NCBI GenBank assembly: GCA_029863245.1
Contig: JAOTVV010000003.1
Coordinates: 82,591 to 146,590, forward strand
Reading direction: 5' to 3'
Length of the DNA stretch: 64,000 nt
Source of the DNA: Gemmatimonadota bacterium
GTDB lineage: Bacteria; Gemmatimonadota; Gemmatimonadetes; Gemmatimonadales; GWC2-71-9
Of this stretch, positions 8,107 through 48,838 are shown one piece after another; the first letter of the stretch is position 1, and each line of letters opens with the position of its first letter. Position numbers and translations under genes: made by a program. Under the pieces are notes generated by a model. It ran no database searches, was not told where the DNA came from, and was given only the letters and a program-made list of their open reading frames with translations.

Positions 8107-9233
8107 AGATCCTGGCGGTGAACTGGCTGGACCGGGAAAACCCGCAGGCCGGTGGTGCGGAAGTCCACTTCTTCGAGATCTTCCGACGGTTGGTGGCGCG
8201 CGGTCACGAGGTGACGCTCGTCGCGTCCGGGTGGCGAGGGGCCGCACACCGTTCGACAATCGACGGCATCGATGTACGACGGTGTGCGGGGCGGCACACC
8301 TTCGCGTTCGTGGCGCGCCGGCAGGCGCGAAATCTGCTCCGACACGATGCCTACGACGTGGTCGTGGAGGATATCAACAAGCTGCCGCTCTTCTTGCCTA
8401 CGCTGACCGCACGACCGGTCTACGTGATCGTGCCACACCTGTTCGGCACGACGGCGTTCCGCGAAGCCTCGTGGCCCATCGCCTCGGTCGTGTGGCTCGC
8501 CGAACGCCCAATTCCTCGCGTGTATCGGCGCTCGGCGTTCCATGCGATCAGCGAGAGCACGCGGGACGATCTGATCGACCGCGGCGTGCCGGCCGAGGCC
8601 GTGCGGGTGATCTACCCCGGCGTAGACGCGTCGGCGTACACGCCGGATCCGACCGGGGCCCGCCGGCCGGTGCCGACGTTTGCCTACGTCGGCAGGCTCA
8701 AGCGGTACAAGGGGCTCGAGCTGGCGCTCGAGGCGGTGGCGCTGGCACGGCGCCAGGTGCCCACGATCCGGTTGGACATCGCGGGATCGGGAGACGACCG
8801 TCCTCGACTGGAGCGAATCGTGCAGCAGCTGGGGCTCGGCGACTGTGTGCGCTTCCTTGGCTTCATCGGCGAGGAGGAGAAGCGTGAGCTGCTGCGGGAG
8901 GCGTGGGCGGTCGTGTTCCCGTCACCCAAGGAGGGCTGGGGAATCACGAACGTCGAGGCGGCGGCCTGCGGCACCCCGGCCGTGGCGTCCGACAGCCCCG
9001 GCTTGCGCGAGTCCGTCCTCAACGATGAAACTGGAATACTGGTTCCCCATAACCACCCGGAGGCTCTAGCGGGCGTACTACGACGCCTGAGTGGCGATCT
9101 CGATCTGGTCAATCGCCTTGGACGCGGCGGCCGGGCATTTGCGGAGACCCTGTCGTGGGACCGAGCTGCCCAGCTCACCGAGGCGCACCTGCACGAAACA
9201 GTTCGCAACGCCCCCCCGAGGGGGAAGGAGTGA
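8103..9233 (+). CDS. glycosyltransferase family 4 (GT-B, GT1/RfaG-like)
   Basis: GTG 8103 overlaps the nusB stop (GTGA). Sequence VKILAVNWLDRENPQAGGAEVH ... EGWGITNVEAAACGTPAVASD carries the E-x7-E type GT4 C-terminal motif. Confidence 0.8.
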   Translation: MKILAVNWLDRENPQAGGAEVHFFEIFRRLVARGHEVTLVASGWRGAAHRSTIDGIDVRRCAGRHTFAFVARRQARNLLRHDAYDVVVEDINKLPLFLPTLTARPVYVIVPHLFGTTAFREASWPIASVVWLAERPIPRVYRRSAFHAISESTRDDLIDRGVPAEAVRVIYPGVDASAYTPDPTGARRPVPTFAYVGRLKRYKGLELALEAVALARRQVPTIRLDIAGSGDDRPRLERIVQQLGLGDCVRFLGFIGEEEKRELLREAWAVVFPSPKEGWGITNVEAAACGTPAVASDSPGLRESVLNDETGILVPHNHPEALAGVLRRLSGDLDLVNRLGRGGRAFAETLSWDRAAQLTEAHLHETVRNAPPRGKE

Positions 9234-31326: not shown

Positions 31327-32019
31327 CTACTGCACGAACTCCGGCTTGACGGTCAGGATCACGGTCCCACCGCCGCTGGCCAGCTGTGCGTTTCCAACCA
31401 CGATCGTCTGACCGGCCCGCGCGTTGACCGTCGTCTCCAGGGTACCCCGATAGGGACTGCGGATCCCCACGCGCAGCTCGACGCTGCCCGAGTCACCGAA
31501 CGCCCGTACGGTCCCGATGTTGGCGGTGATCATCCACGAGTTGCCGTCGGGCGTCGTTATGTCGCCGACCGCCTGCTCGATGTGGCTTCCCTCGGTTCCG
31601 CCGACCACGGCGTCATTGAGTAATCGATACCGCTGGTACTTGAACAGCTTCCGCAACTCGGCTTCGACGTCGGCGATGGCCGGGTCGAACTGTTCCGCGG
31701 GGCCTCGGTCGCTGGCTTCGATGATCTGGAAGTGCAGCCGCACGCCCGGCTTCGGGCGGTCGAACTCGGTCAGCACGCGAGAGATCTTGTCGAGGTTGTC
31801 TTTCGTCTCACGCACGGTGAGGGTGTTCCCCGCATGACCCATCCGGCCCGGCGCCCCCTCCCGGTCGTGGTACACGTACGGGTCGATCAGCTGGGCCGCT
31901 TCCTGCGCGTCGAGGTGTTGGAGTTGAAAGGTCTGCGTGTCCAGCCGATCCAACGCCGAGCCGCCGCATGCCGCGAGGGATGCGAGCAGTAGGACACTCA
32001 GGATCTGGAATGTGCGCAT
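31327..32019 (-). CDS. lipoprotein with secretin-N/NolW-like short domain
   Basis: ATG 32019 is preceded by GAGGAG. Lipobox LLASLAAC. TFQLQHLDAQEAAQLIDPYV...NTLTVRETKDNLDKISRVLTEFDRPKPGVRLHFQIIEAS resembles the NolW-like/secretin N-domain repeat. Confidence 0.6.
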   Translation of the reverse strand: MRTFQILSVLLLASLAACGGSALDRLDTQTFQLQHLDAQEAAQLIDPYVYHDREGAPGRMGHAGNTLTVRETKDNLDKISRVLTEFDRPKPGVRLHFQIIEASDRGPAEQFDPAIADVEAELRKLFKYQRYRLLNDAVVGGTEGSHIEQAVGDITTPDGNSWMITANIGTVRAFGDSGSVELRVGIRSPYRGTLETTVNARAGQTIVVGNAQLASGGGTVILTVKPEFVQ

Positions 32020-32033
32020 GATGTCTCCTCGAT

Positions 32034-32474
32034 CTAGAAGAACCACACCACCACGATATCCGGGTTGTTTGTGTTGAAGACTGCGACATCGACTCCCGCA
32101 GGCTGTTCCACGAGGGGGCTAGCGACCCGTGCCGCTCGCACCGGTGGATCGATCTCGGGGCCGACGTTCGCCGTGTCCGACGTGAGCAGCAGGGTGGCAA
32201 GTCCTGCCGCAGCGAGGGCCGGCGCGGCGACCAGCCAGCGGCGGCGGCGGCGCTGCAGCTTTGGCGCGCGCTCCGGCGCCCTCGCTGGCGGGTGGGACGG
32301 CACGCTCGCGTTCATCGCCTGCCGGAGCGCGTCCGTGTGCGTGAGGATCGCCACGGCTGCCGCGCCGCAGCGGGAACAACTTCGGATGTGCTGCGACAGC
32401 TCGGTCGACCCGCGTCCGGTGAGTTCGGCCGGGGCGGCGGTCAGCAACTGCTGGTAGGCATCCGTGCACTTCAT
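32034..32474 (-). CDS. anti-sigma factor (zf-HC2 type), single-pass membrane protein
   Basis: ATG 32474 in an ATGA overlap with the sigma gene. The H-x3-C-x2-C motif (HIRSCSRC) is followed by an RRRRRW-anchored TM helix. The track ORF is over-extended. Confidence 0.65.
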   Translation of the reverse strand: MKCTDAYQQLLTAAPAELTGRGSTELSQHIRSCSRCGAAAVAILTHTDALRQAMNASVPSHPPARAPERAPKLQRRRRRWLVAAPALAAAGLATLLLTSDTANVGPEIDPPVRAARVASPLVEQPAGVDVAVFNTNNPDIVVVWFF

Positions 32475-33067
32475 TCTCGATGGTCCTCCACGAGCTCCGG
32501 GTGTCGCTCCAGCATGCGGCCGCGGATCGCCTGACGGGCGCGGAACAGGTGCGCGCGAACCGTGTTGGGGTTCATCACGAGCAACACGCTCACCTCGAGC
32601 GGAGTCATGCCCTGCAGGTCCACCAGATCGAACACCTCCCGCTGCATCCGGGGCAGATCCCGAAACAGCGCCATGATCGCGTCCACCGTGTCGGCGCTCT
32701 GCATCGCGTCGACGGGGTCGGGCGGCTCGACCACAGTCCGGTTCCCCTCGTGGGCCGCCCGCTCGGCGAGCTTCGTGCGACGGCGGTGTCGCCGCTGATG
32801 GTCGATGACGAGGTTCCGCGTCACCTGATACAGCCACGTTGTGAATCGCGACTGAAACCGGTAACGACCGAGATCGGCGTGAAGCCGGACAAGCACGTCC
32901 TGCGCGACGTCGTCGGCCTCGTCGGGATGCCCCGTCTGGGCCAGCGCCCAGCGGTACACCCGTGCATGGCACTGCCCGACCAGATCGTTGAAGGCATGTC
33001 GGTCTCCGGCCTGGGACCGTCTCACCAGAGGTTCCAGCAGCGCGTTGAGCTGTTCGAGCCCGCTCAC
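32471..33067 (-). CDS. ECF-type RNA polymerase sigma-70 family factor
   Basis: GTG 33067, 198 aa. Region 2 (DDVAQDVLVRLHADLGRYRFQSRFTTWLYQVTRNLVIDHQRR) and region 4 (MTPLEVSVLLVMNPNTVRAHLFRARQ). Confidence 0.85.
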   Translation of the reverse strand: MSGLEQLNALLEPLVRRSQAGDRHAFNDLVGQCHARVYRWALAQTGHPDEADDVAQDVLVRLHADLGRYRFQSRFTTWLYQVTRNLVIDHQRRHRRRTKLAERAAHEGNRTVVEPPDPVDAMQSADTVDAIMALFRDLPRMQREVFDLVDLQGMTPLEVSVLLVMNPNTVRAHLFRARQAIRGRMLERHPELVEDHRE

Positions 33068-33290: not shown

Positions 33291-34277
33291 TTACACCACC
33301 TCCACGCCTTCTCTCGACCGTCGAAGCAGCGCCTCGGCCGCGACACCTGGCAACCCGAACACCGCGGTGGCCGCTGCATCGGCCGCGAGACACGATGGGC
33401 CCCGGACGGTGACGCTGTGCACCGCCGTCACGCGCGGCGCCCCGGTCGAGGGATCGAGCAGGTGATGGTACACGCGGCCGCCGTACCGGAAGGCGCGCAG
33501 ATAGTCACCCGATGTGGCCACGGCGGCGTCACTTACCCGGATCTTTCCCGACAGCATCCCGGGATTCTCCGGAGACCGGATACCGACGGTCCACGCGTCG
33601 CCGTCCTCCGAGGTGCCGAGCGCGTAGAGATCCCCACCGACGTTCACGAGACCACGGCGTATGCCCCATTCGCGCAGGGCCGCTACCGCACGATCCACAC
33701 CGTACCCCTTGCCGATGCCACCGAGGTCGATTGCCACGTCGGGATCGGTGAACCGTACCCGAGCCATAGTGCCGCTGCGATCGAGGTCCAGTTCTCGATA
33801 CAGTGCTCGGCCCGCGAGGCGCCCAACGTCCCCAGCGGCTGGCGGCGCCGATCGGTGCTCCACGTCCCACAGCGCCGCCGCCCCCCCGAGACACGGATCG
33901 AATCTGCCATCGCTCGTTTCGGCCCACTGCAGGGCGTTGGCCAAAACGAATCCGGTCTCGTCAGATACCGCCACGGCATCGCGGGCCGCCGACGCATTGG
34001 CCCGACCCACGTCAGACGTGGCCGTGAAGCGCGTCAACAGGCGCTCGGTGCGCCGCAGCTCAGCAAACGCCGCATCGATGGCCGCGTGGGCGTACGCGGG
34101 GTGGGCATGCACCACGCCGACCTCCGCGAGGGTGCCCATGACGGGGACTGTCCGCCGTATCAGACGAGACCGCCGTGCTCGGAGGAAGGGCACGGCGCTC
34201 ACTACGAAGGCGCCGACGCCGAGCGCGATCACCTCGCGCCGAGTGGGGTGACGCTCGGGAGAATTATCCTGTTCCAT
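33291..34277 (-). CDS. apbE: FAD:protein FMN transferase (ApbE family)
   Basis: ATG 34277 (MEQDNSPERHPTRREVIALGVGAFVV, Tat-like RR leader). ApbE motifs VMGTLAEV and IDLGGIGKGYGVDRA. Last gene of the rnf operon. Confidence 0.85.
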   Translation of the reverse strand: MEQDNSPERHPTRREVIALGVGAFVVSAVPFLRARRSRLIRRTVPVMGTLAEVGVVHAHPAYAHAAIDAAFAELRRTERLLTRFTATSDVGRANASAARDAVAVSDETGFVLANALQWAETSDGRFDPCLGGAAALWDVEHRSAPPAAGDVGRLAGRALYRELDLDRSGTMARVRFTDPDVAIDLGGIGKGYGVDRAVAALREWGIRRGLVNVGGDLYALGTSEDGDAWTVGIRSPENPGMLSGKIRVSDAAVATSGDYLRAFRYGGRVYHHLLDPSTGAPRVTAVHSVTVRGPSCLAADAAATAVFGLPGVAAEALLRRSREGVEVV

Positions 34278-34440
34278 GCGAAGTCTCCGATTGCTCGTGG
34301 AGCAACTCACACATATTGCAGTCGTGGCCATCGGACTTGAGCCCGCACGAGCCGCAGCGGTCCTGATGACCCTTGCGGTTCATCAGGCCGAACACGATCG
34401 CCAGCACAGCGAGTCCGAGGATGCCAAGTGCTTCGTTCAT
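34264..34440 (-). CDS. 58-aa single-TM Cys-rich peptide, NqrM (DUF539)-like maturation factor candidate
   Basis: Not in the ORF track because it is under 60 aa. My translation is MNEALGILGLAVLAIVFGLMNRKGHQDRCGSCGLKSDGHDCNMCELLHEQSETSHGTG. Its ATG sits in an ATGA overlap with the rnfA stop, and its end overlaps the apbE start by 14 nt. Confidence 0.55.
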   Translation of the reverse strand: MNEALGILGLAVLAIVFGLMNRKGHQDRCGSCGLKSDGHDCNMCELLHEQSETSHGTG

Positions 34441-35015
34441 GACGAGCTCAACAGACCGGCGAAGCCCATGAACGCCAGCGATAGGCTCCCCGCGATAATC
34501 AGCACCAGCGCCATTCCCTTGGCGAGGGCCGGGACGTCAGCCATCTCGCTCGATTCGCGAATCGACGCCATCAGCACCAGAGCGAGTGTCAAACCGAGCC
34601 CGCCGCCGACGGCGAAGAACAGCCCTTCAAGGAGGTTGTAGCCTCGATTGGTCTGGAAGATCGCGAGCCCGAGAATGGCGCAGTTCGTGGTGATGAGCGG
34701 CAGGTAGATCCCAAGCTGCCGGAACAGCACGGGGCTCACCTTCTTGATCACCATCTCGACGATCTGTACTAGCGAGGCGATCACCACGATGAACGAGATC
34801 AGCCGAAGGTACGGCGCGTAGGGTAAGATGAAGGTGTTCAGGAACCACGCGCACACCGATGCGATCACGAGCACGAAGATGTCGGCCAGTCCGAGGCGCA
34901 GAGCCGTGGAGACGCGCGCCGACACTCCCATGAACGGACACAGTCCGAGGAAATAGGCGAGGGTGAAGTTGTTCACCACCATCGCGGAAAGCAGGATCCA
35001 GACCAGCTCGCCCAT
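34437..35015 (-). CDS. rnfA: Rnf electron transport complex subunit A
   Basis: ATG 35015, 192 aa. VNNFTLAYFLGLCPFMGVS and LPLITTNCAILG are collinear with RnfA/RsxA. Confidence 0.9.
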   Translation of the reverse strand: MGELVWILLSAMVVNNFTLAYFLGLCPFMGVSARVSTALRLGLADIFVLVIASVCAWFLNTFILPYAPYLRLISFIVVIASLVQIVEMVIKKVSPVLFRQLGIYLPLITTNCAILGLAIFQTNRGYNLLEGLFFAVGGGLGLTLALVLMASIRESSEMADVPALAKGMALVLIIAGSLSLAFMGFAGLLSSS

Positions 35016-35674
35016 CACGCCGCCTCCTCCCGTGCACCCACGCCGTGCGGCCACTCACGCACGCGTGCGCGCTCCACCCGGCGCTTCTCGATCCATCCGA
35101 ACAGGAGCAGCCAGAAGCCGAGGGTGAGAAAGCCACCGGGCGGCAGTATGAAGATGACCCACGGCTCGAACGGGCCGGGAATGACCTTCATACCGAGTAG
35201 CGCGCCGGTGCCGAGGATCTCGCGGATCGACCCCATCATCACCATCGCAATGATGAAGCCGAACCCGGTGCCGAAGGCGTCCAGCAGTGATCGGCCGACG
35301 GGGTTCTTCGAGGCAAAAGCCTCCTGCCGGCCCAGTATCATGCAGTTCACCACGATCAGCGCGACAAAGGCTCCCAGCGCCTTGTGGATGTCGGGGACCA
35401 GTGCCTCGAGCGTCATGTCGGCCACCGTGACGAACGTCGCGATGATCAGGATGTACGTCGATATCCGCACCTCTCCGGGCACCGCCTTCTTCACGATCGA
35501 CACGAGCAGGCTCGATCCGGTGAGCACGAAGAACGTCGCGATTCCCATGACGAGCGAGTTCTCAAGGGTGTTGCTCACTGCCAAGGCCGGGCACAGGCCC
35601 AGCATCTGGATCAAGACCGGGTTCTCGCGCCAGATACCGCGGAAGAAATCCTGTTGCGGCGACGTCTTGCTCAT
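35015..35674 (-). CDS. rnfE: Rnf electron transport complex subunit E
   Basis: ATG 35674, 219 aa. NPVLIQMLGLCPALAVS and ALIVVNCMILGRQEAFA are RnfE/RsxE-like. Confidence 0.9.
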   Translation of the reverse strand: MSKTSPQQDFFRGIWRENPVLIQMLGLCPALAVSNTLENSLVMGIATFFVLTGSSLLVSIVKKAVPGEVRISTYILIIATFVTVADMTLEALVPDIHKALGAFVALIVVNCMILGRQEAFASKNPVGRSLLDAFGTGFGFIIAMVMMGSIREILGTGALLGMKVIPGPFEPWVIFILPPGGFLTLGFWLLLFGWIEKRRVERARVREWPHGVGAREEAA

Positions 35675-36351
35675 TGCGCGACCTCCGCACTCTGGGGACC
35701 CGTCGCGGCAGCCTGATACGACTCGAGCATCGGCCCCATCCGTTGGAGCGCGTTGTTGATGATCTTGATGACCGTGCGGGACGAGATGGTGGCGCCCGTG
35801 ATCATGTCCACTTCGTGCGGGTCTCCCGTGCTTTGACGGGGCTTCACCCCCGTGAGCGGTGTCTGGACACCGTCGAACTGCGACACGAAGTCCACGTTCT
35901 TCTCGATCTTGTCGCCGAGCCCCGGGGTCTCCTTGCTCTCGAGCACCTTCATGCCCAGGAGCGTCTGCGTCGCGTGGTCGTAGCCGAAGATGAGCCGCAC
36001 GACGTCCTGAAACCCAGGCTCGCCCGACGCGATCGCAAACCCGATAGGGGAGCTGTCGGCGTGATACCCGAAGTAGATCTGCTCGAGCTTCTTCGGGTCG
36101 GCATCGGCCGGCAGCTGACGCGTGAGCGTCCCCTGATAGACGTAGAGAGTATCGTAGTGATCGGGTGCTTTGAGCACCTCTTGGATCGCCGCGGCAAGGC
36201 GCTCGGCCCGGTTGCGCTCGATGGTGGGGAGCGTGGCTTGGTAGACGAACACCAGGACGAACCCCGCGAGGGCACCGGCAAGTCCCAGGGTCACCAACAG
36301 GCGCCACGCCGGGACGTCGGGCTTTGGCTGAAACTGCGCGGGGGCGCTCAT
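35671..36351 (-). CDS. rnfG: Rnf electron transport complex subunit G (FMN-binding)
   Basis: ATG 36351, 226 aa. N-terminal TM anchor and the flavinylation motif DMITGATISSRTV. Confidence 0.85.
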   Translation of the reverse strand: MSAPAQFQPKPDVPAWRLLVTLGLAGALAGFVLVFVYQATLPTIERNRAERLAAAIQEVLKAPDHYDTLYVYQGTLTRQLPADADPKKLEQIYFGYHADSSPIGFAIASGEPGFQDVVRLIFGYDHATQTLLGMKVLESKETPGLGDKIEKNVDFVSQFDGVQTPLTGVKPRQSTGDPHEVDMITGATISSRTVIKIINNALQRMGPMLESYQAAATGPQSAEVAQ

Positions 36352-37352
36352 TCCGTCACCTTCACCGCGGCGCGCGTTCCGAACACTCTGGGTTGCGTAG
36401 CGCGGTTGATGAATGGCACCATCGCGTTCATGAGCAGGATGGCGTACATCACCCCTTCGGCGAGCCCGCCCCACAGCCGGATGACCACCACCAGCACCCC
36501 GATACCGACGCCGTAGAGCCAGCACCCGCGGTTGGTGACCGGCGAGGTCACCATGTCGGTGGCCATGTAGACCGCGCCGAGCATGAGGCCGCCCGAGAAC
36601 AGCATGAACAGCGCGCCCGGAAAGGCGGGGTTGAGCCAGTGCGTGAGCGTGGCAAGCGCCGCGACGGTGAGGAAGATGCTGATCGGGATGCGCCAGTTCA
36701 GGTAGTTCCGCCACGCCAGGTACGCACCGCAGAGCAGAATCAGGATGCCTGCCGTCTCGCCCAGCGAACCGCCGGTGGCACCGATCATGAGCTTGCCCAG
36801 TTCCGTGCTCTGCTGCTCGAACTTCATGAGTCCGAGCGGCGTAGCGCTGGTGAGCACGTCCACCTCGCCGGGACTCATGAGGGGCAGCGCCAGATTGTCG
36901 CCCCGGAGCGCCCACCAGTTCTCGCGAATCACGGGCCACGTGGTGAGCGCCACGGGGAACGCCGCCTGCAGGAACGCCCGGCCCAGCAGCGCCGGGTTGA
37001 AGATGTTCTGACCCAACCCGCCAAAGATGAGCTTGCCGAACCCAATGGCGAACGCGCCGCCCACGAAGGCCATCCACATCGGGAGTCCGGCCGGCAGGCA
37101 GAGGCCGAGCAATAGGCCCGTGATCACCGCAGAGCCGTCGAACAGCGTCTCCCGGCTTCCGAACAGCCATTCGGTTGCGAGACACCCCGCGAGGGCCGCC
37201 ACGATGACCAGTACGGCGCTCGGGCCGAAATAGTAGATGGCCGCCACGATCACCGGGATGAGCGAGACGTTCACCGTCCACATGATCCGCGGCGTACTGT
37301 CGCGCTCGGCCAGGTGCGGCCACGCGGTGATGAGCAGGCGTGGCGCCGTCAT
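36348..37352 (-). CDS. rnfD: Rnf electron transport complex subunit D
   Basis: ATG 37352, 334 aa, polytopic. GQNIFNPALLGRAF and the flavinylation-type motif LTSATPLG. Confidence 0.9.
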   Translation of the reverse strand: MTAPRLLITAWPHLAERDSTPRIMWTVNVSLIPVIVAAIYYFGPSAVLVIVAALAGCLATEWLFGSRETLFDGSAVITGLLLGLCLPAGLPMWMAFVGGAFAIGFGKLIFGGLGQNIFNPALLGRAFLQAAFPVALTTWPVIRENWWALRGDNLALPLMSPGEVDVLTSATPLGLMKFEQQSTELGKLMIGATGGSLGETAGILILLCGAYLAWRNYLNWRIPISIFLTVAALATLTHWLNPAFPGALFMLFSGGLMLGAVYMATDMVTSPVTNRGCWLYGVGIGVLVVVIRLWGGLAEGVMYAILLMNAMVPFINRATQPRVFGTRAAVKVTE

Positions 37353-38689
37353 GCAGCCTTGGGCTTGGGTGGCTGCCGCTTGAGCTGGTTCTTCGCCAGT
37401 GCGAACAGCTGAGTGAGCGGGATATTGGACGGACAAGTGTAGCCGCAGCAGCCGCACACCATGCAGTCCATCAGGTGGTTCTCCACCATCTCGTCGTACC
37501 GGTCGTGCATGGCTAGCTGCCCGAGGAGCTGCGGGTTGAGAAACACGGGACACGCGTCGAGGCAGTGCCCGCAGCGGATGCACGGGTACGAGTGCTGGGA
37601 CTTCACCTCGGCGCCGGTGAGCGCGATGACCCCGGTCGTGCCCTTGGTGATCGGCACGTCGAGGCTGGCCTGCGCTGCACCCATCATGGGACCACCGAAC
37701 ACGATCTCGCGCGCCGTCTCGGTGAGGCCGCCGCACGCATCGAACACATCGCGCACCTTGGTGCCGACCGGCACGATCAGGTTTGCAGGCCGACGCACGC
37801 CGGGACCGGTTACCGTCACGATCCGCTCGATGAGCGGCAGGCCCGTCTCGAACACCTCCGCGATGGTTGCCACCGAGGCCACGTTGTGGACGACCACGCC
37901 CACGTGCATCGGCAGTCTGCCCGACGGCACTTCGCGGCCGAGCAGCGCCTTGATGAGCATCTTCTCGGCCCCCTGTGGGTACTTCACCGTGAGGCCGTGA
38001 ATGGTGACGTGTCCTTCCAGGTCGTCGGGGAGCGTCGCCCGCAGGCGTTCGATGGCGTCCGGCTTGTTCTTCTCGATGCCCACCATCACGCGATCCGCCC
38101 CGATCGTCTTCATCATGAGCCGGATGCCGAGATGCACGCGCCCGGGGTATTCCACCATGGTGCGGTGATCGGTCGTGAGGTACGGCTCGCACTCGCACCC
38201 GTTGATGACGATCGTGTCGATGGAGACGTCGTCGGGCGGGACGAGCTTGACGTGGGTGGGGAAGGCGGCACCGCCCAGGCCGACCACGCCGGCTTGCCGG
38301 ACCGCATCCACGAGCTGCTTGCGGTCCAGGCCACGCCAGTCGGGGATGATCCGTTTCCGCGGTACCTGGGCGTCGTATGGGGCCACGGCAATCCGGATCG
38401 CATCCTGGTAGCCGCCTGTCGGGTGCGGCCACAGCTCGATCGCCGTCACGGTCCCGGCCGCCGAGGTGTGGATCGGCGACGAGATGAACCCGTCGGCTTC
38501 GGCCACCTTGTCACCGCGCTCCACGCGGTCACCTATTCGGACAATGGGCACGGCCGGCTTCCCCGTGTGCTGACTGAGCGGCAGCACGATCTCGTCGGGG
38601 AAGGGCAGCCGGCGGACAGGAATCGCAGCCGTGAGCTGTTTCAGCTCCGGCGGGTGCACCCCGTGGCGGAACCGCATTCGCTTCGCCAT
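37349..38689 (-). CDS. rnfC: Rnf electron transport complex subunit C
   Basis: 446 aa. NADH-binding region GLGGAAFPTHVK and two 4Fe-4S motifs, CIRCGHCLDACP and CMVCGCCGYTCP. Confidence 0.9.
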   Translation of the reverse strand: MAKRMRFRHGVHPPELKQLTAAIPVRRLPFPDEIVLPLSQHTGKPAVPIVRIGDRVERGDKVAEADGFISSPIHTSAAGTVTAIELWPHPTGGYQDAIRIAVAPYDAQVPRKRIIPDWRGLDRKQLVDAVRQAGVVGLGGAAFPTHVKLVPPDDVSIDTIVINGCECEPYLTTDHRTMVEYPGRVHLGIRLMMKTIGADRVMVGIEKNKPDAIERLRATLPDDLEGHVTIHGLTVKYPQGAEKMLIKALLGREVPSGRLPMHVGVVVHNVASVATIAEVFETGLPLIERIVTVTGPGVRRPANLIVPVGTKVRDVFDACGGLTETAREIVFGGPMMGAAQASLDVPITKGTTGVIALTGAEVKSQHSYPCIRCGHCLDACPVFLNPQLLGQLAMHDRYDEMVENHLMDCMVCGCCGYTCPSNIPLTQLFALAKNQLKRQPPKPKAA

Positions 38690-38696
38690 GAATCGC

Positions 38697-41600
38697 TCAG
38701 TTGAACGGCTCCGCCCGCTTCATCCACTTCTCGAGGTCCTTCTCTTTCGGATTGAGCGGCGTGCCCGGGTGGATGATCCGCACCGGACAGCGCTCAGCGC
38801 TCGTGACCAGTTCCTTGAAGGTCCCCGCCTTCGGGTCCTTGATGTACGCCTGCTTCTTGTCGTCGTAGACGAACATCTTCTTGTTGACCTTGATGCACTC
38901 TTCGCAGCTCGTGCACCGCGCGGTGTCGATGTACGGCTCGAGTGCGAGACCTTCCTCCTCCTCGACGGCAGGGGCGGCGACTGCCGCTGTGGCAACGGCC
39001 GCGCCACCTCCCCTCGGAGCCGGCGCCACGGCGGGCCCGGTATCGAGGCTCAACCCGCCCACATCCAGCTTGAGCGGCTGGATCGGCATTGCCTGCACCT
39101 CGCTCAGGAGTTCGGCGATGGTACGCTGACCGTTGCCGGCCCGGACCAGGCCCTCGGCGAGCCGGTGGGCCACGAGTTGCGGATACTTCTGCTTCAGGTC
39201 CGCGATTCTGGCCTCGTACTCCGCCTTGATCTGCGCCGCCTGCGCCTCGAACTCCTGCTCCGCCTCCGCCGAGACGTCCACCGCGAGACCGGCCATCTCC
39301 TTGAGCAGCGACCACACGTGGAGCCGGTCCTCGGCCAGCTGCACCATCTCCGATGAGACGGCCACGCGGCCGAGCGTGCGGTCGGGCCGGAGCAGGTAGA
39401 TGAACGGGGTCTTGCCCTCGCGATCCTCCGGCGATGCCGTCAGGAACTCATGGAACGGCATCATGCTGTCCTCATCGAAGTCACCCCTGACGCGCTTGAA
39501 GTGCTTCTTGAATCGCGCCTCGGTCGCCGCCCAGTCGGCCGTCGTGACCGGCAGCTCCATCATCTGCTCCTGGCCGTTCTCGTCCACGTACTTGAGGTCG
39601 TAGCTTGGCCACGTGTCGTCGATCGACGGGTTGCCGTCGAGCGAGAGCCGCTCCGCCATCGTGTAGCCCTCGGCAGGATCGTAGACGAGCACTGGGTACG
39701 CCCGGCTCTCGAGCATGAGCTTCGCCGCGTCGGGCGCCTGATCGTCACCCACCCCATGCTCGGGCGGGCACGGACAGTGCAGCGCCAGCACCGAGGGGTA
39801 GCGCGACTGCAGGCTCTTGAGCACGCCGGCCAACAGGTGCGACGGGTTCGCCTGGGACGCCTGGAGCACGAACACGTTGCGGTGTGCCATGGCGATCAGC
39901 GCCAACTCCTTGCGCGTCTCCTCCTTGCCGTGCTGTGCCGCGCCGTAGGCCGCCATGTCGCTCACCTGACCGGTGAAGCCGCTGGTGCAGGCCTGGCCGC
40001 CCGTGTTCGAGTACACCTGGGTGTCGAGCACCATCACGCGAATCGGTTTCCCCGACGCCAGGAGTCGCGACATGTTCTGGAACCCGATGTCCAGCATGGC
40101 CCCGTCGCCGCCGGTGGCGAAGATGGGCGGACACAGGTCGAACTCCTTGTCGCTGAACTGCCGCCACTCGAACCGGGTGAAGAACGGCTCGTGGACGGCC
40201 GGATCGTATTCCTCGGCCAGCTCCAGCTCAGCACGCCGCACCGCCACGAACCCGTCGGCCATCTTCCGCATGTGCCCTTCGAAGATGCCGATGGCAATCG
40301 AGGGCGCGTCCTGGAACAGGTGGTTCACCCACGGGAAGGGATAGGGGTTGAACGGATAGGTGCTGCCCCATACCGAGGAGCAGCCTGTGGCGTTGGTCAT
40401 CGCCATGACCGACCGGCCCTTGCCCGTCGGCCCTTCGACGTAGCGCCACCTGAGATCGCGCAAATCGTCGAGCATGGTGCGGATCCGCGCCACCGCCTGC
40501 TTCTGTTCGTCGTCGAGCGTGAGGTCGGCCTTCCCTCCCGCCACGTCCACGGCGTTCAGGTCGGCGTCGGCGGCCAGGAGCGTCCTGGCCTTGGCGTCGA
40601 GACCTGCGATCAACTCGTCCAGTTCGGCGATGTGCCGCTTCACCCGCGGCATCATCAGGGCATTCACCGCCGAGAGCACCAGGTGCACGACGGTCTTCTC
40701 GCCGCAGCCCATGCAGGCGCCGTCGCCGCCGGCCATCGACCGGTAGGTCTCCTTCTTCAGCAGGAGCGACGACAGCACGCCGATGCCCTCCTCGATGTCC
40801 GACACGTTGACGTACCGGTCGTTGGTGTCGGGCAAGAGTTCCCAGAGCTTCCAGTCTTTGCGGAGCTTGTCGACGATCTCGTCGGTCTGCTTGACCGTGA
40901 TGAGCGCCTCGTCGGGACACACGTGCACGCAGATATTGCAGCCCTTGCACGCGTCCGGATTGACCGTGATCGAGAGCAGCCCCCCCGTGTTCTTCTCGCG
41001 TCCCTCCGGTAGGTCGAAGAACGCGGTTGTCTTGGCGAGCGGGAAGTCCTCGAGCACGGCATAGACCGGCGCGAACTCCGCGTCGAGCGCCGCACGGCGC
41101 TCAGGGTCGAGCTTCATCTTGTCGACCACCGTCTTGTAGGCCTCCGACAACACGGCGCCAAACGTCGTGAACGGCACGCCCTTCATGATCTTCCGCGACT
41201 CGTTGCCGAGGTGCTTCGTGATCTGGCGCAGGCGGTCGAGCGACCGGCCGTTGGAGACGAACCGGATGGCCGTGTCGAGTACTTCTTCGACCTCGTTCAC
41301 CAGGCCCGGAATGGCAGCGTCGGGGCACTGCACCCAGCACTGCCCGCAGCCGGTGCACTTCTCCGCGATGAACTCCGGTACTTCGAACCGCACGTCCGTC
41401 ATGTCGCGGATCGTGCTCGTAGCCGCCGGAATCGCGCTCAGTGCGGCAAATGGGTCGGCGATACCGTCGTCACCGGTCTTGTACAGGTAGCAGACCTGTT
41501 CCCAGAACCGGCCGGGGTTTCCAATGCCGGCCCGGACCTTTGAGCCGTCGAGCATTGCGGGCATCTGCGGTGGGGGGATCACCACGTCCTGCGACACCCC

Positions 41601-43718
41601 GTACGCCTCAATGTCGACCGGCTCCACCTCGTCGTAGCCGCGACGGATGACGCGGACATTGTCCTCCACCACCCGCTCCCCAAGGTGACCGAACTTCTTC
41701 TGCAGCTGCTTGCGGATCCCCTCGAACAGTTGCTGCTCCTCGAGGCCTTCGCGCTCGGCCAGGCCGGAGACGCGGAAGAAGGCGCCCATGAAGGCCGCGC
41801 CCTGCATCCGGTACCGCAGCTCCGCGTCCGACGCCTCCTCCATCGCGATCTTGAAGGCATCCAGGCTGAAGAGCCGGATCTTCCGGTCCTTGATGGTCTG
41901 CTGTGCCTCGGCGGGCAGGCTGTGCCACAGGTCCTCCGCGCTGCGATCGCTCTGGAGAATGAACACGCCGTCGGGCGCGAGACCGGCCAGCGGGTCGGAG
42001 TTGCGGAACACGTTCGGATCGGGCGAGAGCACCACGTTGACATGCTTCAGCTCGCAGTTGAGCCGGATGGGCTCGTGCGCCAGCGTGGTGTAGAACGTGG
42101 TCGGCTGGCCCTTCTTTTCCGAGCCGTACTTCGGGTTGGCCTTGATGTACATCCCCATCAGCTCGGAGGCTGTCATCGCCAGATTCTTGCCCATCGTGAT
42201 CGCGCCCCAGCCGCCGACGGAGTGAATGCGGATGGAGGTCGCGCCCTTGGGCAGGAGGTTCACGTTTTCCGTGGGGAGGAGCGACAGATTGGCCACCTCG
42301 GGATACGCTGCAAGCAACTCGTCCTGCCAAATCTGGAGCTTGGGCAGCTTGGTGCCCACCCGCACGAAGTCGATGCCGAGATAGTACTGGCGCTGCTTCT
42401 TCCCGCCGTCGAGCATGTTGTCCACGGCGGCGATGAGATCGGCCGGCTGGAGGTCGCGGCTACCGAGGCCGAAGGTCCCGGAGTAGAATGCCGGTGCGTC
42501 GCCCGGGCCGTACGCGGCGATGCCAGCGAAGGGCAGCTTCCCGTTACCCGCCACGCCGTTCTCCATCGCCTTGTTCACGGCGGCACGAATCTCCCGCAGG
42601 ATCGGCTGGTCCACTGCGAGCGGCTGGTCCACGCGCTCGAGCACCGCCACGGCCTTCTTGCCCTTCAGCAGATGCGTGATGAGGTCGGCCGGGAATGGCC
42701 GGAACATCGTGACGTTGAGCACGCCGAATTTGACCCCGCGCGTCTCGCGCAGGTAGTCGCACACCGCCTCGGCATTGGGGATGAGCGAGCCCTGGCCGGC
42801 GATCACGTATTCCGCATCGTCCAGCCTATACCCCATGGTGCGGGCATACTGGCGGCCCGTGAGCACGGCTAGCTCCGCCATCGCCTGGTCGGTGAACTCC
42901 GCGACGTGGTCGAAGTAGAACGGACGCTGCGCTGCCACGCCCTGCTGGTAGCTGTCCTGGTTCTGGACGACGCCCAGCATGGCGGGGTAGTCGAGGTCGA
43001 ACATCTCCGGAATGCGTCGCCGCTTCTCGCCGAACACCCACCGCTGCGCCGGCGTGGGTGAGTCGATCAGATCGGCTGGGTCGCCGAGGAACTCCTTCAC
43101 TAACTCCCGCTCTGGAAGCGTGATCGACTCGATCACATGGGTGGTGAGGAACCCGTCCTGCGCCAAAATCCCCGGGTTGAGCGACAGTTCGGCCACGCGG
43201 TGCGCGATCAGGTTGAGATCGGCCGACTCCTGCGCGTCCTTGGCGAACAGCTGGAAGAAGCCCGTGTCGTCCACCGCGTGATAGTCGTCGTGGCCGGCGT
43301 GCACGTTGAGCGCGTGCTTGGTCATGGCGCGCGCGCCGATGTTGAGCACGTAGGTGAGCCGCTTGCCCACGGCGGCATACAGCGACTCGTGCATGTACGC
43401 GATGCCCTGCCCACTCGAGAAGTTGGCAGCACGCAGCCCGACCATGCTCATGCCGGCGGTCACCGCCGCGGCGGCGTGTTCGCCCTCGGGCTCGAAGAAC
43501 AGCAGCCGACGGCCATGCACGTTGGTCTGACCTGCGGCGACGGCCGCAGCCCAGCCCTCGCCCATCTGCGTGGACGGCGTAATCGGATACGCGCCGGCTG
43601 CCTCGCTTCCCGCGGTCTCCATGTCCACGACGGCTTGCGTGCCGTCGACGGCCATGGGTATGCCAGGGTACTTCGGCTGCTCGGGAGGTTTGGGATTCGA
43701 TTTGCGCTTGAACATCAT
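38697..43718 (-). CDS. pyruvate:ferredoxin (flavodoxin) oxidoreductase-like 2-oxoacid oxidoreductase, single-chain, 1673 aa, with C-terminal ferredoxin-like domain
   Basis: ATG 43718 in an ATGA overlap with the rnfB stop. It has a PFOR domain I (YPITPSTQMGEGW), a gamma-like domain, two 4Fe-4S motifs (CTGCGQCWVQCPDAAI and CKGCNICVHVCPDEAL), the TPP motif GGDGAMLDIGF...NTGGQ, and an extra C-terminal CTSCEECIKV...CPVRIIHPG module. Confidence 0.9.
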   Translation of the reverse strand: MMFKRKSNPKPPEQPKYPGIPMAVDGTQAVVDMETAGSEAAGAYPITPSTQMGEGWAAAVAAGQTNVHGRRLLFFEPEGEHAAAAVTAGMSMVGLRAANFSSGQGIAYMHESLYAAVGKRLTYVLNIGARAMTKHALNVHAGHDDYHAVDDTGFFQLFAKDAQESADLNLIAHRVAELSLNPGILAQDGFLTTHVIESITLPERELVKEFLGDPADLIDSPTPAQRWVFGEKRRRIPEMFDLDYPAMLGVVQNQDSYQQGVAAQRPFYFDHVAEFTDQAMAELAVLTGRQYARTMGYRLDDAEYVIAGQGSLIPNAEAVCDYLRETRGVKFGVLNVTMFRPFPADLITHLLKGKKAVAVLERVDQPLAVDQPILREIRAAVNKAMENGVAGNGKLPFAGIAAYGPGDAPAFYSGTFGLGSRDLQPADLIAAVDNMLDGGKKQRQYYLGIDFVRVGTKLPKLQIWQDELLAAYPEVANLSLLPTENVNLLPKGATSIRIHSVGGWGAITMGKNLAMTASELMGMYIKANPKYGSEKKGQPTTFYTTLAHEPIRLNCELKHVNVVLSPDPNVFRNSDPLAGLAPDGVFILQSDRSAEDLWHSLPAEAQQTIKDRKIRLFSLDAFKIAMEEASDAELRYRMQGAAFMGAFFRVSGLAEREGLEEQQLFEGIRKQLQKKFGHLGERVVEDNVRVIRRGYDEVEPVDIEAYGVSQDVVIPPPQMPAMLDGSKVRAGIGNPGRFWEQVCYLYKTGDDGIADPFAALSAIPAATSTIRDMTDVRFEVPEFIAEKCTGCGQCWVQCPDAAIPGLVNEVEEVLDTAIRFVSNGRSLDRLRQITKHLGNESRKIMKGVPFTTFGAVLSEAYKTVVDKMKLDPERRAALDAEFAPVYAVLEDFPLAKTTAFFDLPEGREKNTGGLLSITVNPDACKGCNICVHVCPDEALITVKQTDEIVDKLRKDWKLWELLPDTNDRYVNVSDIEEGIGVLSSLLLKKETYRSMAGGDGACMGCGEKTVVHLVLSAVNALMMPRVKRHIAELDELIAGLDAKARTLLAADADLNAVDVAGGKADLTLDDEQKQAVARIRTMLDDLRDLRWRYVEGPTGKGRSVMAMTNATGCSSVWGSTYPFNPYPFPWVNHLFQDAPSIAIGIFEGHMRKMADGFVAVRRAELELAEEYDPAVHEPFFTRFEWRQFSDKEFDLCPPIFATGGDGAMLDIGFQNMSRLLASGKPIRVMVLDTQVYSNTGGQACTSGFTGQVSDMAAYGAAQHGKEETRKELALIAMAHRNVFVLQASQANPSHLLAGVLKSLQSRYPSVLALHCPCPPEHGVGDDQAPDAAKLMLESRAYPVLVYDPAEGYTMAERLSLDGNPSIDDTWPSYDLKYVDENGQEQMMELPVTTADWAATEARFKKHFKRVRGDFDEDSMMPFHEFLTASPEDREGKTPFIYLLRPDRTLGRVAVSSEMVQLAEDRLHVWSLLKEMAGLAVDVSAEAEQEFEAQAAQIKAEYEARIADLKQKYPQLVAHRLAEGLVRAGNGQRTIAELLSEVQAMPIQPLKLDVGGLSLDTGPAVAPAPRGGGAAVATAAVAAPAVEEEEGLALEPYIDTARCTSCEECIKVNKKMFVYDDKKQAYIKDPKAGTFKELVTSAERCPVRIIHPGTPLNPKEKDLEKWMKRAEPFN

Positions 43719-44566
43719 GCAACCGCCTTCTCGAGAGGCTGTGCGGACGCTTGGAACTGCGCGCCCTCGACCCAGACGATGGCGCCGGTCGGGCATCGCG
43801 CGATGGCCGACACGTCCGCCAGATCGTTCTTGCTGTAATCCACCACCGCCAACCCGTCCCTGATCTCGATGAGCCCGGGCGCGGCGTCCGCCACGCACCG
43901 CTCGCAGGCGGTGCAGGCCACCCGGCACAGGGCTTCGATCTCGTCACCTTCCAACGCGCTCTTGCACTGCACAATCAGTTTCTGCTCGATCGGCATGAGC
44001 ACGAACAGATCCTTCGGGCACGCGTCCACGCAGTCTCCGCACGCGGTGCACTTGTCCGGGATGACTACGGGAATGCCATACTGGTTCATGTAGATCGCGT
44101 CGAAGTCGCACGCGACCTCGCAATCGTCGAGACCGAGGCACCCCCAGCGACAGCCCTTGCCGCCGCCGGCCACGGCTGCTGCGGCCTTGCACGTGTCGAG
44201 CCCCAGATAGTCGGCCTCCTGCACCGCCACGTTGCTCCCGCCGGCGCAGAGGAGCCGCGCCACCCGCTTGTTCGCTTCGCCCGCTTCCACCCCGAGGAAC
44301 TGCGCCATCGAGAGCACGTCGTCAGCACCCATCACCGTGCAGGTAGCGGGCTGGATGCGGCCCAGCACCACACCCTCGGCGAACGCGCGGCACCCCGCCT
44401 CGCCGCAGGCGCCGCAGTTGGCGCCCGGCAGCATGTCGGTCACCGCGTCGATCCGCGGATCCTCCCACACCTTGAACTTCCAGTGCGTGAGCGCGATCGC
44501 CGCGGCGAACGTGAGGCCCACGCCACCCAGGATGGCGACCGAGAGCAGAATGGTGGTGATGCTCAT
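43715..44566 (-). CDS. rnfB: Rnf electron transport complex subunit B
   Basis: ATG 44566, 283 aa. N-terminal TM helix, the CGACGEAGC Fe-S region, and ferredoxin motifs CTACGDCVDACP and CTACERC. Confidence 0.85.
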   Translation of the reverse strand: MSITTILLSVAILGGVGLTFAAAIALTHWKFKVWEDPRIDAVTDMLPGANCGACGEAGCRAFAEGVVLGRIQPATCTVMGADDVLSMAQFLGVEAGEANKRVARLLCAGGSNVAVQEADYLGLDTCKAAAAVAGGGKGCRWGCLGLDDCEVACDFDAIYMNQYGIPVVIPDKCTACGDCVDACPKDLFVLMPIEQKLIVQCKSALEGDEIEALCRVACTACERCVADAAPGLIEIRDGLAVVDYSKNDLADVSAIARCPTGAIVWVEGAQFQASAQPLEKAVA

Positions 44567-44576
44567 CCACGCGCTC

Positions 44577-45596
44577 CTAGATGTCCGACAGGTTGGCCTG
44601 CGACAGGAGCCACGCAGCGAGCTTGTCGACCGGATCGGCGGGTGCGGCTGGCGTGACCGGAGTCGCCGACGCGTCCGTCCCCACCGCCGGCCTCGTTCCA
44701 ACCGTGATGTCCGCCAGTGACCGCAGTTGCCGGATCTCCTCAGCCTGCTGGGACCCGCTCCGGCCGCCAACAGACATCTTCGGCTCGGTCGCGGGCAGAT
44801 GCTCCACCGTCAAGCGACCGGCCAGGTGCAGCCCGCCCTTGGGATCGTGAACGAACCGTGCGGCCGACTCGGGGACCAGGGCGCCGATGCCCGGACCGTC
44901 GTGCGTTGCCAGCCGGTCCAAGCCCGTGCCATCGTGGGTTTGGATGACGAAGGTGCCCGGCGTGATGAGCCGCACCAGCGGGGCGGGGGAGCAGGCCCCA
45001 CGCACGACCAGCACGATCTTCTGCGATCCATCCAGGAAGTCCGTGAGCATTTCGGCGCGCAGATCGGCACCGTCGACCGCCACCACCAGTGGGGGCGCGA
45101 GCCGGCGTTCTCCTTTGCTCCATTTCTGGAAGGGGAACGATCCCAGTGAGCGCGCGTGCTCGTTGCCGCGATAGCTCCCCGACCGCGTCAACTCGAAGAT
45201 CCGCACAGCCCCGAAGGCGCGTCCAATCTCCTCGAGTGCCTTCGCAACAGCGGTCCGGAGGTCGCCGCCCGGATTCACTTTCACCAGGAAGAGATCATGA
45301 TTGCGCTGCGACAGTTCGTTCATCGTGTCGCGCGCTTTCTCGATCGTCTCGACGGTGAGCGTGTCGAGCTTCAGCGAGCCTCCGAACAGCTTGGCCAGCC
45401 GGTCGGTGTCGAAGCGATCGGCCGCGAACGGTCCCAGCTCGGCAGCCACGCGGTTCACGCCGCCGTTCTGGGACTGCCGATGCTCGGCGAGGAACGTCTG
45501 CACCTGCTCGACGGTCGTGCCCAGCGCCGACCGGAACGCATCCCGCTGCCCAGCCAGCGCCGTCAGAGCGAGCTCCACTCGGTCGTCAGAGGGCAT
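44577..45596 (-). CDS. hypothetical protein (339 aa), no family recognised
   Basis: ATG 45596 overlaps the korB end by 11 nt. Its stop is 10 nt before the rnfB start, with AGGAG in between. Predicted soluble with a helical N-terminus. No metal or cofactor motif was seen. Confidence 0.6.
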   Translation of the reverse strand: MPSDDRVELALTALAGQRDAFRSALGTTVEQVQTFLAEHRQSQNGGVNRVAAELGPFAADRFDTDRLAKLFGGSLKLDTLTVETIEKARDTMNELSQRNHDLFLVKVNPGGDLRTAVAKALEEIGRAFGAVRIFELTRSGSYRGNEHARSLGSFPFQKWSKGERRLAPPLVVAVDGADLRAEMLTDFLDGSQKIVLVVRGACSPAPLVRLITPGTFVIQTHDGTGLDRLATHDGPGIGALVPESAARFVHDPKGGLHLAGRLTVEHLPATEPKMSVGGRSGSQQAEEIRQLRSLADITVGTRPAVGTDASATPVTPAAPADPVDKLAAWLLSQANLSDI

Positions 45597-46539
45597 AAGT
45601 GTCAAGCTCCGCATTGAGGATGGCGATCTTCTCGTCCGCCGTCTTGGGGGATACCCTCCGGACCTCCTCGTACACGGGCAGATCGTCATTCCGGTAAAAC
45701 ACGCCAAGCCGGATCTTGTCATCGAGCTGAGCCAGCCGAAATGCGTTCACGAGGTCCGCGGGATCGTGATAGACCTCGTTCTTGTAGATCTGCTTCAGCG
45801 CCGGCACGTCGACACCGTCGGGGTGGACCAAGAGCTCGATCGTGTTGGAATCGCGCATGGCGTTGAGGTACAGCTGGTCCGTGTACTGGGGACACCGCTG
45901 CAGGATGCGTACGAACGAGAACCCCCGATGCTCGTAGGCCGCCTTCAGCACGGCGTAGATGTGATCGGGCACCCAGTCGCCGGTCTGCGCCACGAACGAG
46001 GCGTTCTCCACACCGAGGGTCGTCGCGATCGGGTTCATCCCTTCGAGGAACGCGCCTTTGGGCTGCGTGTTGCTCCGCACGCCCTTTGGGCTCGTGGGCG
46101 ACGTCTGGTTCTTGGTGAGCCCGTAGACGCCGTTGTCGAGCATGAGGGCCACCATGTTGGGGTTGTAGCGCGTGGTGTGGATCCAGTGTGCCGCCCCGAT
46201 GGAGCAGCAGTCTCCGTCGCCCATGACCACGAACACCTGCAGCTCGGGCCGCCGCAGCTTGATACCGGTCGCCAGCGGTAACGCCCGGCCGTGGAGGCCG
46301 TGGAAGCCGTACGAGTTGATGTAGTGGGGAAACCGGCTCGAGCAGCCGATGCCCGAGACGAACACCGTCTCTTCGGGCGGGAGCTGCAGGTCGGCCAGGA
46401 AGCGTTGCACGGCGGCGAGCACGGCGTGGTCACCGCATCCCGAGCACCAGCGCGCGGTCGCCGCCTGGTAGTCGTCCATCTCCCAAGAGCGGTCGTCGGC
46501 TATCGCGCTGCCAAGCAGTGAGCATCCGAGTTGAATCAT
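45586..46539 (-). CDS. korB: 2-oxoacid:ferredoxin oxidoreductase beta subunit (KorB-like, TPP-binding)
   Basis: 317 aa. WCSGCGDHAVL and the TPP motif VMGDGDCCSIGAAH...DNGVYGLTKNQ. Confidence 0.9.
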   Translation of the reverse strand: MIQLGCSLLGSAIADDRSWEMDDYQAATARWCSGCGDHAVLAAVQRFLADLQLPPEETVFVSGIGCSSRFPHYINSYGFHGLHGRALPLATGIKLRRPELQVFVVMGDGDCCSIGAAHWIHTTRYNPNMVALMLDNGVYGLTKNQTSPTSPKGVRSNTQPKGAFLEGMNPIATTLGVENASFVAQTGDWVPDHIYAVLKAAYEHRGFSFVRILQRCPQYTDQLYLNAMRDSNTIELLVHPDGVDVPALKQIYKNEVYHDPADLVNAFRLAQLDDKIRLGVFYRNDDLPVYEEVRRVSPKTADEKIAILNAELDTYAL

Positions 46540-46541
46540 GA

Positions 46542-48458: not shown

Positions 48459-48838
48459 CACACTCTCGCTCGAACTCGTGGTCGTGTGAAGGTCGAGGAG
48501 TCCGGGCGGAGCTCGGCTCGGCACCGAGAGGCAAACCACCACCTCAGCGGAGAGCCGACCAACAGCTCCTCCACCCCTCCCGACCGTCTATGCGGTAGGT
48601 GGTCCGACCGGCGGGACGCAGCGCCGTGGCGCTCGCGCAGCTGATCCTGTCAGAATTCCACTCACCGCTGCTCAACCAACAATTCTAATAGGAATGGGGC
48701 ACGGGAGGGGAAAGACGGGATGAAGAGGTCTTTACAAGACGTTGTGCTACTTGGGGTTTGGGGATATTCGTGCCCACGGTCCGCCCGCCAGGAGCTCTCG
48801 CTCAGGGACGGATCAATGACCACCGAATCGGTTGTCGA

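Follow-up and report, generated by a model that had tools for sequence, protein, structure and literature searches.

NQR and Rnf both carry a [2Fe-2S] cluster in the middle of the membrane, ligated by two cysteines from each of NqrD and NqrE (RnfA and RnfE in Rnf) (PMC12174285; PMC6209661). Insertion of this cluster into NQR seems to need NqrM, a small membrane protein whose gene closes the nqr operon together with apbE; it is reported to be required for NQR maturation and has been proposed to deliver iron to NqrD/E (PMC12174285; PMC6209661). NqrM is the only candidate helper for Na+-NQR, the sister enzyme of Rnf, and no equivalent for Rnf is described in the reviews consulted. Here we examine a stretch of 64,000 nucleotides from a Gemmatimonadota bacterium (contig JAOTVV010000003.1, positions 82,591 to 146,590; hereafter the window), in which a preliminary description had proposed an NqrM/DUF539-like membrane peptide of 58 residues encoded between rnfA and apbE. 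The peptide gene is real and lies in an rnf operon, and its product falls outside the NqrM family. We regard the peptide as a so far undescribed candidate, either for an iron or iron-sulfur helper of Rnf or for one of its small subunits; no Rnf-associated small cysteine-rich peptide was found in the literature searched.

A small gene coupled to rnfA

On the minus strand of the window, an ATG-started open reading frame (ORF) at 34264..34440 encodes 58 residues, exactly MNEALGILGLAVLAIVFGLMNRKGHQDRCGSCGLKSDGHDCNMCELLHEQSETSHGTG, matching letter for letter the peptide first proposed. Its cysteines number four (C29, C32, C41 and C44, arranged CxxC-x8-CxxC); the five counted in the preliminary description were a miscount. 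The start shares ATGA with the rnfA stop (a 4-nt overlap), and the last 14 nt of the gene overlap the apbE ATG at 34277, both as originally read. Gene callers chose the same apbE start on three other loci (L082, L083 and L084), where the 14-nt overlap is also present, and the locus of an 88%-identical ortholog (L081) repeats both the order rnfG-rnfE-rnfA-peptide-apbE and the 4-nt overlap.

In the GC-rich DNA of the window, 15 kb hold 150 ORFs of 30 aa or more, and because ORFs of such length are frequent there, the peptide ORF by itself proves nothing. Between the window and L081, the dN/dS of the peptide gene (Nei-Gojobori) is 0.087, with 17.5 synonymous and 7.5 non-synonymous differences, and lies between the values of rnfA (0.031) and apbE (0.159) for the same pair. 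A Gemmatimonadota metagenome-assembled genome (MAG) at NCBI contains an identical protein, labelled hypothetical (P0001), an 88%-identical protein was found in a JGI metagenome, and gene callers predicted the peptide in independent assemblies. Given the low dN/dS, the identical annotated protein, the relatives that follow rnfA in about 50 of 80 loci and the four tail cysteines of 51 of 60 family members (both described below), the ORF is a real gene under purifying selection. The earlier view that it is a genuine, translationally coupled member of the rnf operon is thus borne out.

Public annotation of the family reads 'hypothetical', and two peptides followed by a gene for an FNR-like flavoprotein carry the wrong name 'chemotaxis protein' at NCBI. 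Pfam and NCBIfam scans of the peptide and its orthologs placed it in no family. It represents another instance of functional proteins of fewer than 60 aa that are missed by gene callers and domain databases.

The peptide gene and its neighbours are arranged as follows:

34264..34440, minus strand: the 58-aa peptide, with an N-terminal transmembrane helix (about residues 4-20), a basic linker, CxxC-x8-CxxC and an acidic/His tail
33291..34277, minus strand: apbE, flavin transferase of 328 aa with a twin-arginine-like signal (Pfam/NCBIfam), the start overlapping the last 14 nt of the peptide gene
34437..35015, minus strand: rnfA, 192 aa (Pfam/NCBIfam), with both [2Fe-2S]-ligand cysteines present (GLCPF, TNCAILG)
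35015..35674, minus strand: rnfE, 219 aa (Pfam/NCBIfam), with both ligand cysteines present (GLCPA, VNCMILG)
35671..36351, minus strand: rnfG, 226 aa, with an FMN_bind domain, an ApbE substrate (Pfam/NCBIfam)
36348..37352, minus strand: rnfD, 334 aa, by tblastn against rnfD of related loci, one of them with a called PF03116 gene
37349..38689, minus strand: rnfC, 446 aa, with RnfC_N, Complex1_51K, SLBB and 4Fe-4S domains
38697..43718, minus strand: pyruvate:ferredoxin oxidoreductase (PFOR), 1673 aa, with a C-terminal Fer4_13 ferredoxin domain
43715..44566, minus strand: rnfB, 283 aa, with PF04060 FeS (3.6e-12) and 4Fe-4S domains, the stop overlapping the PFOR start

From rnfB to apbE, neighbouring genes overlap by 1-14 nt at every junction except that between PFOR and rnfC. 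These start/stop overlaps point to a single translationally coupled operon, rnfB-por-rnfC-D-G-E-A-peptide-apbE. RnfC carries intact Complex1_51K and 4Fe-4S domains, RnfB is present and NqrF is absent, identifying the operon as rnf and not nqr; the rnf setting given in the preliminary description holds, with rnfC, G, E and A confirmed through Pfam/NCBIfam and rnfD through tblastn and the called PF03116 gene. All four canonical [2Fe-2S] ligand cysteines of RnfA and RnfE are kept, in columns that are 100% conserved in our comparison, and a search of RnfA/E for extra, clade-specific cysteines with which the peptide could share a cluster gave none that was convincing. The idea of a mini-RnfB replacing a missing RnfB was rejected: the full-length rnfB lies upstream of PFOR, in the same place as in Sulfurivermis fontis, and therefore the peptide is no stand-in for an absent RnfB.

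Just upstream of the rnf cluster, at 45586-48542 on the minus strand, are the genes of a 2-oxoacid:ferredoxin oxidoreductase (alpha subunit 666 aa, beta subunit 317 aa), a second ferredoxin-reducing enzyme beside Rnf. A 381-aa ORF without a Pfam match (44577-45722, minus strand) separates them from rnfB. Downstream of apbE (31327-32972, minus strand) are genes for a 312-aa protein without a Pfam match and a 239-aa Secretin_N protein; in another locus (L002, 7020-8658) the same two genes stand downstream of the peptide gene, and apbE is absent.

Association with a PFOR-linked Rnf subtype

We compared 80 loci encoding RnfA relatives. Peptides were called by a heuristic of our own based on helix hydrophobicity and cysteine count, which accepted ORFs of 46-80 aa with an N-terminal hydrophobic helix, at least three tail cysteines and a start a few bases at most from the rnfA stop. 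Such a peptide follows rnfA in about 50 of the 80 loci, and in 23 its start lies at an ATGA overlap. A short type resembling that of the window occurs in Gemmatimonadota, Acidobacteriota, Eisenbacteria and Krumholzibacteriia. A longer type, with an extra RHPELGPFR segment ahead of the cysteines, occurs in sulfur-oxidising and other Beta- and Gammaproteobacteria (among them Thiothrix, Thiobacillus, Lamprocystis and Rhodocyclaceae). Cultured carriers include Sulfurivermis fontis (AP018724.1), Thiothrix caldifontis (DSM 21228) and Lamprocystis purpurea.

The preliminary description had placed the peptide between rnfA and apbE. The rnfA-peptide half of that order is conserved, but apbE comes next in only 18 of the peptide loci; an FNR-like flavoprotein gene takes this place in 11, and other genes in the rest. 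In Sulfurivermis fontis, for which the genome is complete, rnfB-PFOR-rnfCDGEA-peptide is followed by genes for phosphoenolpyruvate (PEP) synthase and its regulator PpsR, and apbE is not adjacent. A PFOR homologue is encoded immediately upstream of rnfC in 41 of the 80 loci, most of them peptide-bearing, and conversely most of the peptide-bearing loci with upstream sequence covered have it there. As the downstream genes vary, the invariant link is with rnfA and the PFOR-linked subtype of Rnf, not with apbE.

The 11 loci in which an FNR-like flavoprotein (FAD_binding_6/NAD_binding_1) follows the peptide directly, with no apbE at that place, are L032, L048, L056, L057, L059, L064, L067, L068, L071, L072 and L080; one Acidobacteriota locus of this group also has an RHPELGPFR-like segment in its peptide. 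Beside the rnf/FNR cluster of Thiothrix caldifontis (L067, 7702-10440, minus strand) a 912-aa protein is encoded whose TIR, AAA/NB-ARC-like NTPase and TPR domains make up a defence-type architecture.

No peptide was found in the 13 loci where rnfB immediately follows rnfA (0/13), nor in the eight Ignavibacteria/Bacteroidota loci (0/8), which are laid out as rnfA, apbE and then rnfB. In four of these eight (L052, L055, L061 and L074) a NusG_II protein of about 245 aa with a twin-arginine (TAT) signal is encoded between rnfA and apbE (about 6650-7400 in L052). The clearest exception to the association is a MAG labelled Deltaproteobacteria (L003, 6606-7000), in which RnfA is 82% identical to that of the window and PFOR lies upstream, and no peptide ORF is present. 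One locus is ambiguous since the contig edge is reached (L017), and in another (L031) a peptide-like start lies within a long ORF. In this Acidobacteriota MAG (6621-8222), a peptide-like N-terminus consisting of a transmembrane helix and CGDGPECAGCGG runs on as a 533-aa ORF, which could be a fusion, a frameshift or GC-rich read-through.

The rnfB-PFOR-rnfCDGEA-Cys4 peptide module (38697-44566, minus strand, in the window; 1-10204 in L085) is common to Gemmatimonadota and Gammaproteobacteria. No description of a PFOR-Rnf gene module was found in the literature searched. This widespread and apparently undescribed module, with its ferredoxin-fused PFOR, couples pyruvate/ferredoxin chemistry to the ion-pumping Rnf, and the PEP synthase and PpsR genes that come after it in Sulfurivermis fontis suggest a pyruvate-synthase/Rnf unit working by reverse electron flow.

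Anatomy of the peptide and its relationship to NqrM

Family anatomy was assessed on 60 collected members. They have a median length of 59 aa, with the helix beginning at about residue 4. Exactly four tail cysteines occur in 51 of the 60, in 36 different spacing patterns of which 2-8-2 is the commonest (13 cases); the cysteines are thus conserved in number but variable in spacing. The net charge averages -0.35 ahead of the helix and +1.8 over the 12 residues that follow. Under the positive-inside rule, this bias predicts an N-terminus outside the cell membrane and a cysteine tail facing the cytoplasm. AlphaFold2 predicts the helix with confidence (predicted local distance difference test score, pLDDT, about 90) and gives the cysteine tail a low score (pLDDT 50-60; mean pLDDT 65.6), which is consistent with a loop that would become ordered only around a metal.

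A word-indexed protein search with the single peptide returned only two clusters, and the same kind of search with a mixed alignment recovered the proteobacterial type only, none with Pfam domains. An exhaustive HMMER search over 1.84 billion representatives gave only 14 matches at E <= 1e-3. Ten further peptides from these matches, of 56-73 aa, all have the same plan, in which M-x-E-x-L-G-I-L-G leads into a hydrophobic helix; a basic linker then connects to two CxxC pairs set 7-9 residues apart, and the tail is acidic ('ES.H'). Judged from these searches, the family is small and fast-evolving. No second copy of the peptide and no NqrM-like ORF was found elsewhere among the 1041 ORFs of the window.

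Membership of the NqrM/DUF539 family, as first proposed for the peptide, is contradicted by the profile searches and by the cysteine motif. The gathering scores of the two Pfam models that matter here are 22 bits for PF04400 (NqrM) and 27 bits for PF12669 (a FeoB-associated family, see below). PF04400 does not match the peptide at E <= 0.1, and at E <= 1 it matches none of 49 positional orthologs and none of 30 of the window type, while all 20 authentic NqrM proteins used as a positive control match at about 1e-23. A hidden Markov model (HMM) built from 120 real NqrM sequences failed to pick out the peptide from the window ORFs at E <= 10, and its best match on any ortholog has an E value of 0.0015 (12.9 bits); our NqrM alignment is dominated by Gammaproteobacteria, and the Pfam model is broader. 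The motif GSCGG-x9-CxCPEPCD (spacing 11-1-3), invariant in 20 NqrM proteins, is absent from the peptide family, and none of the 60 members has the 11-1-3 spacing. We therefore reject NqrM membership on the PF04400/NCBIfam scans of the peptide and both ortholog sets, our own NqrM HMM and the controls with real NqrM.

Profiles were also aligned with hhalign. Against the NqrM alignment, the window-type peptides reach 65% probability and a score of 26.6 (24.4 with reversed NqrM), and the mixed alignment reaches 88%. When the helix was held fixed and the NqrM tail columns were shuffled, the scores had a mean of 19.3, a standard deviation of 1.2 and a maximum of 27.3, and one of 100 shuffles reached 26.6. 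After these reversed and shuffled controls, the hhalign match was rejected as proof of NqrM homology: the signal appears to come mostly from the helix, and what is left is a likeness in cysteine placement too weak to decide the matter. The two Rnf-linked peptide types match each other with a best E value of 0.0037, no closer than either matches NqrM, although the RnfA proteins beside them are about 54-62% identical to that of the window. Since types of equal position are as distant from each other as from NqrM, sequence cannot resolve homology in this class. The failed DUF539 test lowers the probability that the peptide is an NqrM, and not that it works like one.

Possible roles and likeness to known systems

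A conserved, unannotated Cys4 peptide coupled to rnfA is a concrete candidate for a factor in [2Fe-2S] insertion into Rnf, or for an overlooked subunit. Of these we tentatively favour the former, by analogy with NqrM: the peptide may be a membrane-tethered iron or iron-sulfur donor or chaperone for the [2Fe-2S] cluster of RnfA/RnfE. It would be a bitopic mini-protein with 3-4 periplasmic residues, one transmembrane helix and a flexible cytoplasmic tail in which the cysteines start about nine residues past the helix. It would be synthesised by translational coupling with RnfA, within a module of rnfB, PFOR-ferredoxin, rnfCDGEA and the peptide. Its four thiolates could bind iron or a small iron-sulfur unit at the cytoplasmic surface of the membrane and pass it to the four RnfA/RnfE cysteines that hold the mid-membrane [2Fe-2S]. 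In that case the peptide would be dedicated to cofactor insertion. It would work next to ApbE, which transfers flavin to RnfD/RnfG, and would be the functional counterpart of the NqrM of Na+-NQR. That it binds metal, which client it serves, and that its contact with the complex is transient rather than permanent are all steps that we infer.

The likeness to NqrM draws on architecture, predicted topology with a cytoplasmic cysteine tail, and operon position; a role as donor is suggested by the four thiolates at the cytoplasmic surface, co-translation with RnfA and the adjoining flavin-maturation gene. Where apbE is the neighbour, it is the other cofactor-maturation gene of Rnf. The design, with four tail cysteines despite variable spacing, is kept across phyla, and the weak profile similarity to NqrM extends beyond the helix (26.6 against the tail-shuffle mean of 19.3). 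Purifying selection on the gene, the retained ligand cysteines of RnfA/E and the similarity of some orthologs to PF12669, also a family of presumed iron-binding transmembrane peptides (PMC8749426), point the same way. Several observations weigh against a cluster donor. The 21 rnf operons of other layouts have no peptide, and therefore it is not a general requirement for Rnf to obtain its cluster. The peptide tracks the PFOR-linked Rnf subtype as closely as it tracks rnfA, and its adjacency to apbE is not conserved, an FNR-like gene or PEP synthase taking that place in relatives. Neither the PF04400 scans nor the NqrM HMM gave a significant match to NqrM, reversed NqrM scores nearly as high as the true orientation, and tight translational coupling would give subunit-like stoichiometry.

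That last point leads to a role that we consider possible and less likely than cluster donation, namely that of a permanent small subunit of the PFOR-linked Rnf, with its transmembrane helix packed against RnfA/E or the RnfB anchor. The Cys4 site would then hold structural Zn, redox-active Fe (rubredoxin-like) or a shared cluster, and would help to dock or wire RnfB or the PFOR-fused ferredoxin domain. Co-occurrence with the PFOR-ferredoxin gene upstream of rnfC, absence from the other rnf layouts compared, and conservation of the whole module in Sulfurivermis fontis where apbE is not adjacent all fit a subtype-specific subunit equally well, and the ATGA coupling to rnfA suggests equimolar synthesis. 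Lineage-specific extra subunits of Rnf have a precedent in RnfH of A. vinelandii (PMC12174285). On the other hand, such a range of cysteine spacings would be unusual if the site were a fixed redox centre carrying electrons, and the fast sequence evolution, as seen in how few representatives the exhaustive HMMER search reached, argues in the same direction. AlphaFold2 predicts no folded cysteine domain, RnfA/E lack clade-specific extra conserved cysteines for a shared cluster, and no such chain is present in the reviewed Rnf structures, though those come from other clades.

An improbable alternative is a generic peptide of the PF12669 type, serving Rnf/PFOR loosely as a membrane metal or iron buffer or sensor, or as a thiol redox sensor, for example in local iron supply or regulation. 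Iron binding is presumed for the PF12669 peptides, which are uncharacterised (PMC8749426). PF12669, and not PF04400, is the closest Pfam family and the only one repeatedly matched by the orthologs: 13 of 30 Gemmatimonadota-type orthologs match at E <= 1, one with 29.2 bits, above the gathering score, and another with 26.0, and the 20 control NqrM proteins never match it. The window peptide itself has no match at E <= 1, and the model is short and of low complexity (transmembrane helix plus Cys/Gly), so that the matches may be compositional; for this reason we take them to suggest the same general class and not membership. Like the peptide, these FeoB-associated Cys-rich proteins have a transmembrane helix directly before a Cys/Gly-rich tail with four cysteines, in about 45-60 aa. 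They occur in the context of feoB, whereas the peptide occurs in that of rnfA, and no feoB was identified among the characterised genes, either from rnfB to apbE in the window or in the 80 loci. The peptide does not fit the published motif Cx3-5Cx2-3Cx6-8C (PMC8749426), and the window-type subfamily differs from PF12669 in its long x8 spacer and in the acidic 'ES.H' tail that its members conserve. That the peptide gene strictly follows rnfA in different phyla further argues for an Rnf-specific role. Finally, it is very improbable that the ORF is non-functional, either a chance product of GC-rich DNA or an upstream ORF acting as a coupling device that passes ribosomes from rnfA to apbE: same-size ORFs are frequent in the window and this one overlaps both neighbours, but omega in its frame is 0.087, the helix and four cysteines are kept over phyla even where apbE is not downstream, and gene callers found it independently.

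Returning to cluster donation, a wider proposal, which we regard as doubtful at present, is that membrane-tethered Cys4 mini-proteins form one class of iron or iron-sulfur inserters, with NqrM serving NQR, the present family serving the PFOR-coupled Rnf and PF12669 serving Feo. The peptide would then be the first assembly factor known to be dedicated to the intramembrane [2Fe-2S] of Rnf. Being confined to the rnfB-PFOR-rnfCDGEA module, it would point to a separate Rnf subtype that needs such help, possibly one exposed to oxygen and running in reverse in a pyruvate-synthase machine.

Among described systems, NqrM offers a close parallel in architecture and setting. Like the peptide, it has about 60-80 aa, one N-terminal transmembrane helix, a basic stretch and four predicted cytoplasmic cysteines, and it is encoded at the operon end of a homologous redox pump, adjoining apbE. 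This NqrM-like architecture and position, as claimed in the preliminary description, hold for the window, but adjacency to apbE is not universal in the family. The presumed client of NqrM, the Cys4-ligated [2Fe-2S] of NqrD/E, has its counterpart in RnfE/A. The two differ in cysteine spacing (11-1-3 in NqrM, 2-8-2 in the peptide), in the basic, helical C-terminal extension of NqrM that is missing from the peptide, and in gene order, the NqrM gene following apbE in the nqr operon and the peptide gene preceding apbE in the rnf operon. The N-terminal module of RnfB (a membrane anchor followed by PF04060, CxxCx4Cx16C) is also comparable, as it places a CGxCG-type motif after a membrane anchor in the same complex. 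It differs from the peptide in linker length and cysteine spacing, and PF04060 does not match the peptide, while it matches the RnfB of the operon at 3.6e-12. Together with NqrM and the FeoB-associated proteins, the peptide belongs among the small membrane peptides with four cysteines that accompany iron-handling machines of the membrane.

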